Virus record (IMG/VR): IMGVR_UViG_2713896900_000003
Location: 1 to 6,909 of that record
From: a virus
Lineage: Duplodnaviria > Heunggongvirae > Uroviricota > Caudoviricetes
Strand: one strand, 5' to 3'
DNA: 6,909 nt
Part shown: positions 5,831-5,983 of the stretch, piece after piece
How the letters are laid out: every line of letters starts with the position of its first letter
How positions within the stretch are numbered: the first letter of the stretch is position 1
Position numbers and translations under genes: made by a program
Notes under the pieces: model-generated
Told to the model about the DNA's origin: nothing
The model's input: the letters and a program-made list of their open reading frames with translations, nothing else
The model's database searches: none

Positions 5831-5983
5831 ATGAGCTACCATGTTATCGAGAATTTTTTAGGGAGTATGACATCAGGAATGTGGTGGCCTGTTTTAATAT
5901 TTCTATTTCTATTTCTATTTCTATTTCTATTTCTATTTCTATTTCTATTTGTTGCGGTTTTTTCTTTAGTTTATGTGTTTTGA
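5831..5983 (+). CDS. Possible small hydrophobic peptide ORF (50 aa) spanning the hexamer repeat; speculative
   Basis: ATG 5831 to TGA 5981-5983 translates MSYHVIENFLGSMTSGMWWPVLI(FL)8FVAVFSLVYVF. No convincing SD at any of the in-frame ATGs (5831, 5867, 5879). A terminator-like hairpin follows 18 nt downstream. Any frame stays open across an ATTTCT repeat, so this may be fortuitous. Confidence 0.2.
   Translation: MSYHVIENFLGSMTSGMWWPVLIFLFLFLFLFLFLFLFLFVAVFSLVYVF
5899..5950. repeat. Hexanucleotide microsatellite (ATTTCT)8 plus partial unit
   Basis: Eight perfect tandem ATTTCT units (5899-5946) followed by attt (5947-5950). Located in the intergenic region upstream of the leftward 590-aa ORF. 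Confidence 0.97.

Follow-up and report, generated by a model that had tools for sequence, protein, structure and literature searches.

A hexanucleotide microsatellite in an Escherichia albertii prophage is the typing locus VNTR-9 and probably a neutral spacer

The window analyzed here, a stretch of 6,909 nt, corresponds to the replication/nin region of an Escherichia albertii lambdoid prophage whose relatives include the Stx1 phages of E. coli O26, O111, and O157. Its genes run in the order O, P, ren, ninB, a Dam-type methyltransferase, ninE, a leftward gene for a protein of 590 aa, an ATTTCT repeat, an HNH endonuclease, and ninG. GC content is 0.27–0.41 from ~3300 onward, compared with 0.50–0.56 leftward of that point. 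An E. albertii contig (L009, JAQAOG010000051) carries no substitution relative to the window over 6,056 nt, the nearest complete E. coli genomes (O26:H11 11368 and relatives) are ~95.6% identical, and the E. coli phage SH2026Stx1 displays the same arrangement a few kb upstream of stx1. The rightward HNH-ninG-Q block opens with the HNH endonuclease gene (6145–6711, plus strand), assigned by Pfam HNH_3 (5.9e-11), phrog_99, and the RefSeq annotation of homologous loci. C-terminal to HNH_3, the encoded protein has a sub-threshold AP2-domain match (22.4 bits, cut-off 33.3); this layout would fit phage HNH-AP2 proteins of the homing-endonuclease-like type. A consensus scan also returned a weak terminator-like hairpin (6001–6019, plus strand) 50 nt to the right of the repeat. 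Its T-run reads TTTTTT in E. albertii but is broken to TTTTCCC in all E. coli loci compared, so the hairpin was rejected as a conserved terminator and is probably not functional.

The repeat itself (5899–5950) comprises eight perfect ATTTCT units (5899–5946) and a partial ATTT (5947–5950), with a single T ahead of them at 5898, as read directly from the sequence. Tandem Repeats Finder reported 5898–5950 with a period of 6, 8.8 copies, 100% matches, and a score of 106, compared with 54 for the second-best array of the window. At 53 nt, it is the longest perfect period-6 tract present. Across 1,500 dinucleotide-preserving shuffles, the longest such tract reached 12.4 ± 1.1 nt (max. 17) for the whole window and 12.0 ± 1.1 nt (max. 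18) for its AT-rich half. The original prediction, made from the letters alone, had described eight perfect tandem hexamers ~330–380 bp upstream of the start of the 590-aa reading frame and upstream of the HNH gene. Both the array and its geometry were borne out, as the tract lies 326–377 nt from the TTG start at 5573 and the ATG of the HNH gene (6145) follows 194 nt downstream. The ATTTCT motif is in itself generic: a pattern scan of genome contigs detected scattered arrays of at least five units in representatives of at least 120 unrelated species.

The leftward gene (3801–5573, minus strand), delimited from the open reading frame list and by comparison with homologues and here called the cargo gene, is of unknown function and begins with a TTG preceded by a Shine-Dalgarno sequence. 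Profile searches against Pfam, PADLOC, and PDB gave no match for its product; in PHROG it matched phrog_9230, and the families returned were all of 'unknown function'. Proteins 100% identical to it occur in E. albertii, and homologues were found only in bacteria with type III secretion (E. albertii, EHEC, Salmonella, and Providencia alcalifaciens). A chromosomal paralogue in E. albertii (L012–L017, 2501–4282) is 72% identical, conserves the TTG start and the Shine-Dalgarno sequence, and sits beside nleF and an AvrPphF-like gene, whereas the Salmonella homologue (~49% identity) lies between cdd and a DUF218 gene. The 590-aa protein is possibly an uncharacterized type III secretion effector carried by Stx1-type phages. 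In O111:H8 (L021 and L022, 1–1301), the cargo gene is annotated as two open reading frames of 310 and 275 aa, which correspond to the half-length families phrog_14900 and phrog_13344; it is therefore probably a pseudogene in this serotype.

The repeat is already known. [quoted passage not shown]) (PMC3321953, PMC3768571) and has a repeat length of 6 bp (PMC3321953 Table 1; PMC3768571 Table 1). On an O157:H7 chromosome (L002), both PulseNet VNTR-9 primers match exactly, at 3720–3750 and 4237–4263, and bracket (ATTTCT)12 at 3978–4049 within an amplicon of 544 bp. This locus is 96.7% identical to window positions 5898–6909 over 1,021 nt and shares the 15 nt to the left of the repeat. The forward primer, GCGCTGGTTTAGCCATCGCCTTCTTCC (PMC3321953 Table A1), finds a perfect match in the O26, O157:H7, and SH2026Stx1 loci (L001, L002, and L003) and matches the window in 26 of 27 bases at 6134–6160 (minus strand), spanning the HNH start codon. 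The reverse primer site is absent from the window. Exact primers around the O157:H7 array, the near-identical right flank, and the forward site in the window together identify the microsatellite as VNTR-9, and its allele range and whole-unit changes, comparable to those of the O157:H7 locus, agree with the identity given by unit and flanks.

The O157:H7 locus differs from the window by an IS30 insertion and by the loss of the cargo gene. A left flank (5884–5898) is kept in every version of the locus, and its left edge at ~5883/5884 coincides with the IS30 insertion point, as judged from where homology ends. Homology to the window begins at 5884 in O157:H7 and stops at 5882 in E. coli 2014C-3011 (L004), and IS30 ends abut both points. 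The O157:H7 end (L002, 3940–3965) lies 13–15 nt to the left of the repeat. In 2014C-3011 (L004, 4270–4310), the cargo-side flank runs directly into the complementary IS30 end, with a GT duplication. The two ends look like halves of one ancestral insertion. Judging from these junctions, the IS30 insertion that defines the VNTR-9 form of O157:H7 was probably followed by a later rearrangement that removed the 590-aa gene. By contrast, the window and the O26/O111 Stx1 phages retain the uninterrupted, pre-IS30 arrangement without a reverse primer site. The reverse primer anneals in an IS30 remnant specific to the O157:H7 arrangement, and uninterrupted loci (O26, O111, and E. albertii) should therefore type as null.

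Unit number varied from 5 to 17 across E. coli and E. albertii loci whose flanks were otherwise identical. Within E. albertii, the contig without substitutions over ~6 kb (L009) contained 11 units compared with 8 in the window, a second locus (L005) encoding a cargo protein identical to that of the window contained 6, and the arrays of two others (L006 and L007) were interrupted by ATTTCC and ATTTTT. Direct counts in six E. coli loci gave 5, 8, 13, 14, 16, and 17 units with flanks identical over ~400 nt. A query comprising both flanks matched 243 complete E. coli genomes, and an evenly spaced sample of 60 was scored from match lengths, which step by 6 and were calibrated against the direct counts. 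The sampled genomes carried 5 (n = 2), 6 (n = 2), 7 (n = 9), 8 (n = 11), 9 (n = 10), 10 (n = 9), 11 (n = 6), 12 (n = 3), 13 (n = 3), or at least 14 units (n = 4), and none of these 60 had fewer than 5. Eight O111 strains, named or identified from the literature, harbored eight different alleles (5, 6, 7, 8, 9, 10, 11, and 14), and 31 IMG/VR prophage contigs ranged from 5 to 16 units, with 8, 9, and 11 in the three of O157 IS30 type. Some arrays are broken up by variant units (ATTTCC, ATTTTT, and GTTTCT; the 16-unit E. coli array has one), which are signs of ordinary microsatellite decay. Two E. albertii short-read contigs (L008 and L010; ends at 6–29) terminate inside the array, so that unit numbers from draft genomes are unreliable at this locus.

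Copy number is thus far from invariant among very close relatives, and the slippage-prone behavior proposed from the sequence alone was confirmed by the comparison across related genomes that the original prediction had suggested. Published typing data agree. VNTR-9 has been reported with 6–23 repeats in 15 alleles, with a diversity index of 0.90 (the highest of eight loci), and with null alleles in 31.7% of 202 German O157 isolates (PMC3321953). Published clade medians for Japanese O157 are 9–12 units. During serial passage, VNTR-9 changed in whole-unit steps at ~1.3e-4 mutations per generation, and 59% of the mutations overall in the MLVA passage data were insertions (PMC3777172).

The sequence between the cargo gene and the repeat was examined for regulatory sites. 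Between 5300 and 6300, a simple promoter scan returned nothing on the minus strand, and it found no promoter-like site in or adjoining the array. Aligning the upstream regions of the window's cargo gene, its O26 orthologue, and the 72%-identical E. albertii paralogue points to a candidate sigma-70 promoter of the cargo gene (5683–5709, minus strand), consisting of TTGACG (5709–5704), 15 nt, and TGTAAT (5688–5683), that falls below the threshold of the scan. Its TTGACG aligns with TTGACA upstream of the paralogue (shared TTGAC(G/A)), and positions 5701–5800 are the best-conserved intergenic block, with 92–98% identity to O26 compared with 76–84% for 5574–5700. The repeat begins 189 nt beyond the candidate −35 element. 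The array was also considered as a source of promoter hexamers and rejected: its best arrangement, TAGAAA-N18-TAGAAA, matches 8 of 12 positions without the final T, and the scan was empty there.

The repeat occurs independently of the cargo gene. It persists and varies without the gene in IS30-type loci (8, 9, 11, and 12 units) and where the gene is split in O111:H8 (5–14 units), and no microsatellite was detected upstream of the cargo homologues in the E. albertii chromosome, Salmonella, or Providencia. Assigning the tract to the control region of this gene, as originally predicted, is therefore unsupported, given its distance from the candidate −35 element and its variation in loci lacking the gene. 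Nor does anything support the repeat acting as a switch or tuner of a gene.

Three functional readings of the array were weighed against this background, and even taken together they are unlikely. One holds that the unit number alters the distance or helical phase between the cargo promoter and an element to the right of the repeat, or else AT-tract architecture or H-NS silencing, and thereby grades expression of the 590-aa gene among the descendants of one clone. The repeat does lie on the promoter side of that gene, within the same AT-rich island (GC 0.30–0.37), it is hypervariable, and alleles below 5 units were not seen in the E. coli sample; moreover, a gene family confined to type III secretion pathogens, with a paralogue beside nleF, makes a host-interaction cargo plausible. 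We nevertheless consider this reading improbable. The array sits ~190–240 bp upstream of the sole conserved promoter-like element, with no nearer minus-strand promoter found by the scan, and the DNA to its right is the HNH module, which O157:H7 retains without the cargo gene. Allele ranges are similar whether the cargo gene is intact (5–17), split (O111, 5–14), or absent (O157:H7, 6–23), cargo homologues elsewhere do without a repeat, and an IS30 insertion between repeat and promoter was tolerated in two lineages. An effect on RNA appears still less probable. On the rightward early (pR) transcript, (AUUUCU)n could form a length-tunable Rho-loading site or spacer that modulates read-through into HNH-ninG-Q and, through it, the expression of late genes and Stx. 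Consistent with this, the plus-strand tract is G-free and pyrimidine-rich with UC every 6 nt, features that would suit a Rho utilization site, and it belongs to a ~2.8-kb RNA segment that is antisense to the cargo gene and devoid of plus-strand genes between ninE and HNH. However, N normally makes lambdoid early nin transcription termination-resistant, so that one more Rho site should matter little; the tract is indistinguishable from the surrounding untranslated RNA, and the nearby hairpin resembling an intrinsic terminator is not conserved. Some modest tuning, of the cargo gene or of rightward read-through, may exist, but it is distinctly improbable that the VNTR-9 array is a length-tunable upstream element grading either of them.

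The third reading concerns an open reading frame of 50 aa (5831–5983, plus strand) that crosses the repeat and starts with ATG, its translation in the window including (FL)8. If it were a real hydrophobic peptide, its length would change with copy number, as had been suggested from the sequence alone; each unit would add or remove a Phe-Leu pair and alter the length of a membrane helix. The EDL933 annotation indeed places VNTR-9 'inside ORF Z3935/Z3936' (PMC3321953), and the PGAP pipeline annotates a hypothetical protein over long arrays. Frame discordance between species argues strongly against it: a 1-nt indel, downstream of the common ATG and ahead of the array, makes E. coli encode (IS)n where E. 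albertii encodes (FL)n. In O157:H7, sequence derived from IS30 takes the place of the N-terminal part, and in the E. albertii locus L006, the gene caller chose a minus-strand (EI)n frame instead. The array is stop-free in five of six frames, so reading frames arise over it automatically and lengthen with it; in five loci inspected, PGAP called one over 13, 14, and 16 units but none over 5 and 8. The purine-rich stretch upstream lies 16–25 nt before the ATG, too distant for a Shine-Dalgarno sequence, the product has no Pfam or PHROG match, and a literature search for Z3935/Z3936 returned only the MLVA table. With a reading frame that differs between the two species and a strand that differs in L006, the peptide-length idea did not hold. 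We conclude from these frame comparisons that the 5831–5983 frame is most likely an artefact of the repeat rather than a gene, and a coding function is scarcely credible.

We instead regard the repeat as probably a neutral or near-neutral, slippage-prone spacer microsatellite, a neutrality that we infer from the absence of evidence for a role. It sits in AT-rich non-coding DNA that separates the leftward accessory gene from the rightward HNH-ninG-Q block in a Stx1-type prophage. During replication, nascent and template strands would misalign by whole 6-nt units, so that units are gained or lost; slippage by whole units is suggested because the observed changes are whole units. MutS-dependent mismatch repair acts on loops of about 1–4 nt. 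Six-base loops probably escape it, in which case the rate of length change would exceed the substitution rate by orders of magnitude. At the published order of ~1e-4 changes per generation, far above substitution, the array could remain long, mostly perfect, and polymorphic without selection, and persist in phages of both E. coli and E. albertii. Two observations weigh against neutrality. The minimum of 5 units in our sample and the published O157 minimum of 6 could reflect selection for a minimum length, but this floor is explained equally well by insertion bias at short lengths or by incomplete sampling. Furthermore, an AT-rich acquired segment beside a possible virulence gene resembles the places where contingency repeats occur in other pathogens.

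Contingency repeats located upstream of promoters include the TAAA tract of Neisseria meningitidis nadA and the 7-bp repeats of Haemophilus influenzae hmw1A/hmw2A. These lie within or adjoining mapped promoter or regulator sites, and changes in expression with unit number have been measured. The window repeat shares with them hypermutability, a position 5′ of a possible host-interaction gene in a pathogen, and polymorphism among close relatives, but it lies ~190 bp from the candidate promoter and survives loss of the gene. Of the phase-variable or contingency element first proposed, hypermutability stands, whereas control of a gene is unsupported, and a 6-nt unit cannot shift a reading frame. 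Other counterparts are the O157 loci O157-3, -17, -19, -25, -37, and -10, which likewise have 6-bp units and change in whole-unit steps. O157 MLVA loci mutate at 4e-5 to 2e-3 per generation and are employed purely as neutral markers (PMC3321953, PMC3777172). Several of the other loci lie in annotated chromosomal open reading frames, where 6-bp steps keep the frame, whereas VNTR-9 is located on a mobile prophage, which explains why null alleles are so frequent and why the locus turns up in several serotypes and in E. albertii.

The finding is thus the rediscovery of a standard epidemiological marker and offers little biological news. For typing, VNTR-9 is uninterrupted by IS30 in O26 and O111 Stx1-type prophages and in E. 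albertii, which may explain some of the 'null alleles', and moving a primer to the conserved left flank would make the marker usable in O26, O111, and E. albertii as well. If the regulatory reading were true, which is unlikely, a routinely typed locus would report functional polymorphism beside a possible new effector gene; with tuning of this kind, members of a clonal EHEC or E. albertii population would differ in a trait encoded by the prophage.

Several further features of the cargo family were recorded. Upstream of the E. albertii chromosomal paralogue (L012–L017, 2344–2368), a perfect inverted repeat, TGACAG-N13-CTGTCA, overlaps the TTGACA ~130 nt from the gene; it is absent from the window and the phage-borne cargo copies and may resemble the 'nle regulatory inverted repeat'. 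AlphaFold2 modeling of the cargo protein from a 15-sequence alignment gave a mean pLDDT of 38.5, which is too low to support a fold search. Confidence was low over the first ~120 residues, where the motif LTLNDFLDN is repeated, and hydrophobic helices are predicted at about 300–430. The cargo gene of the E. albertii contig L009 contains an in-frame 12-nt deletion that removes VLTQ (window residues 386–389), a stretch with one invariant and two near-invariant residues of the family.
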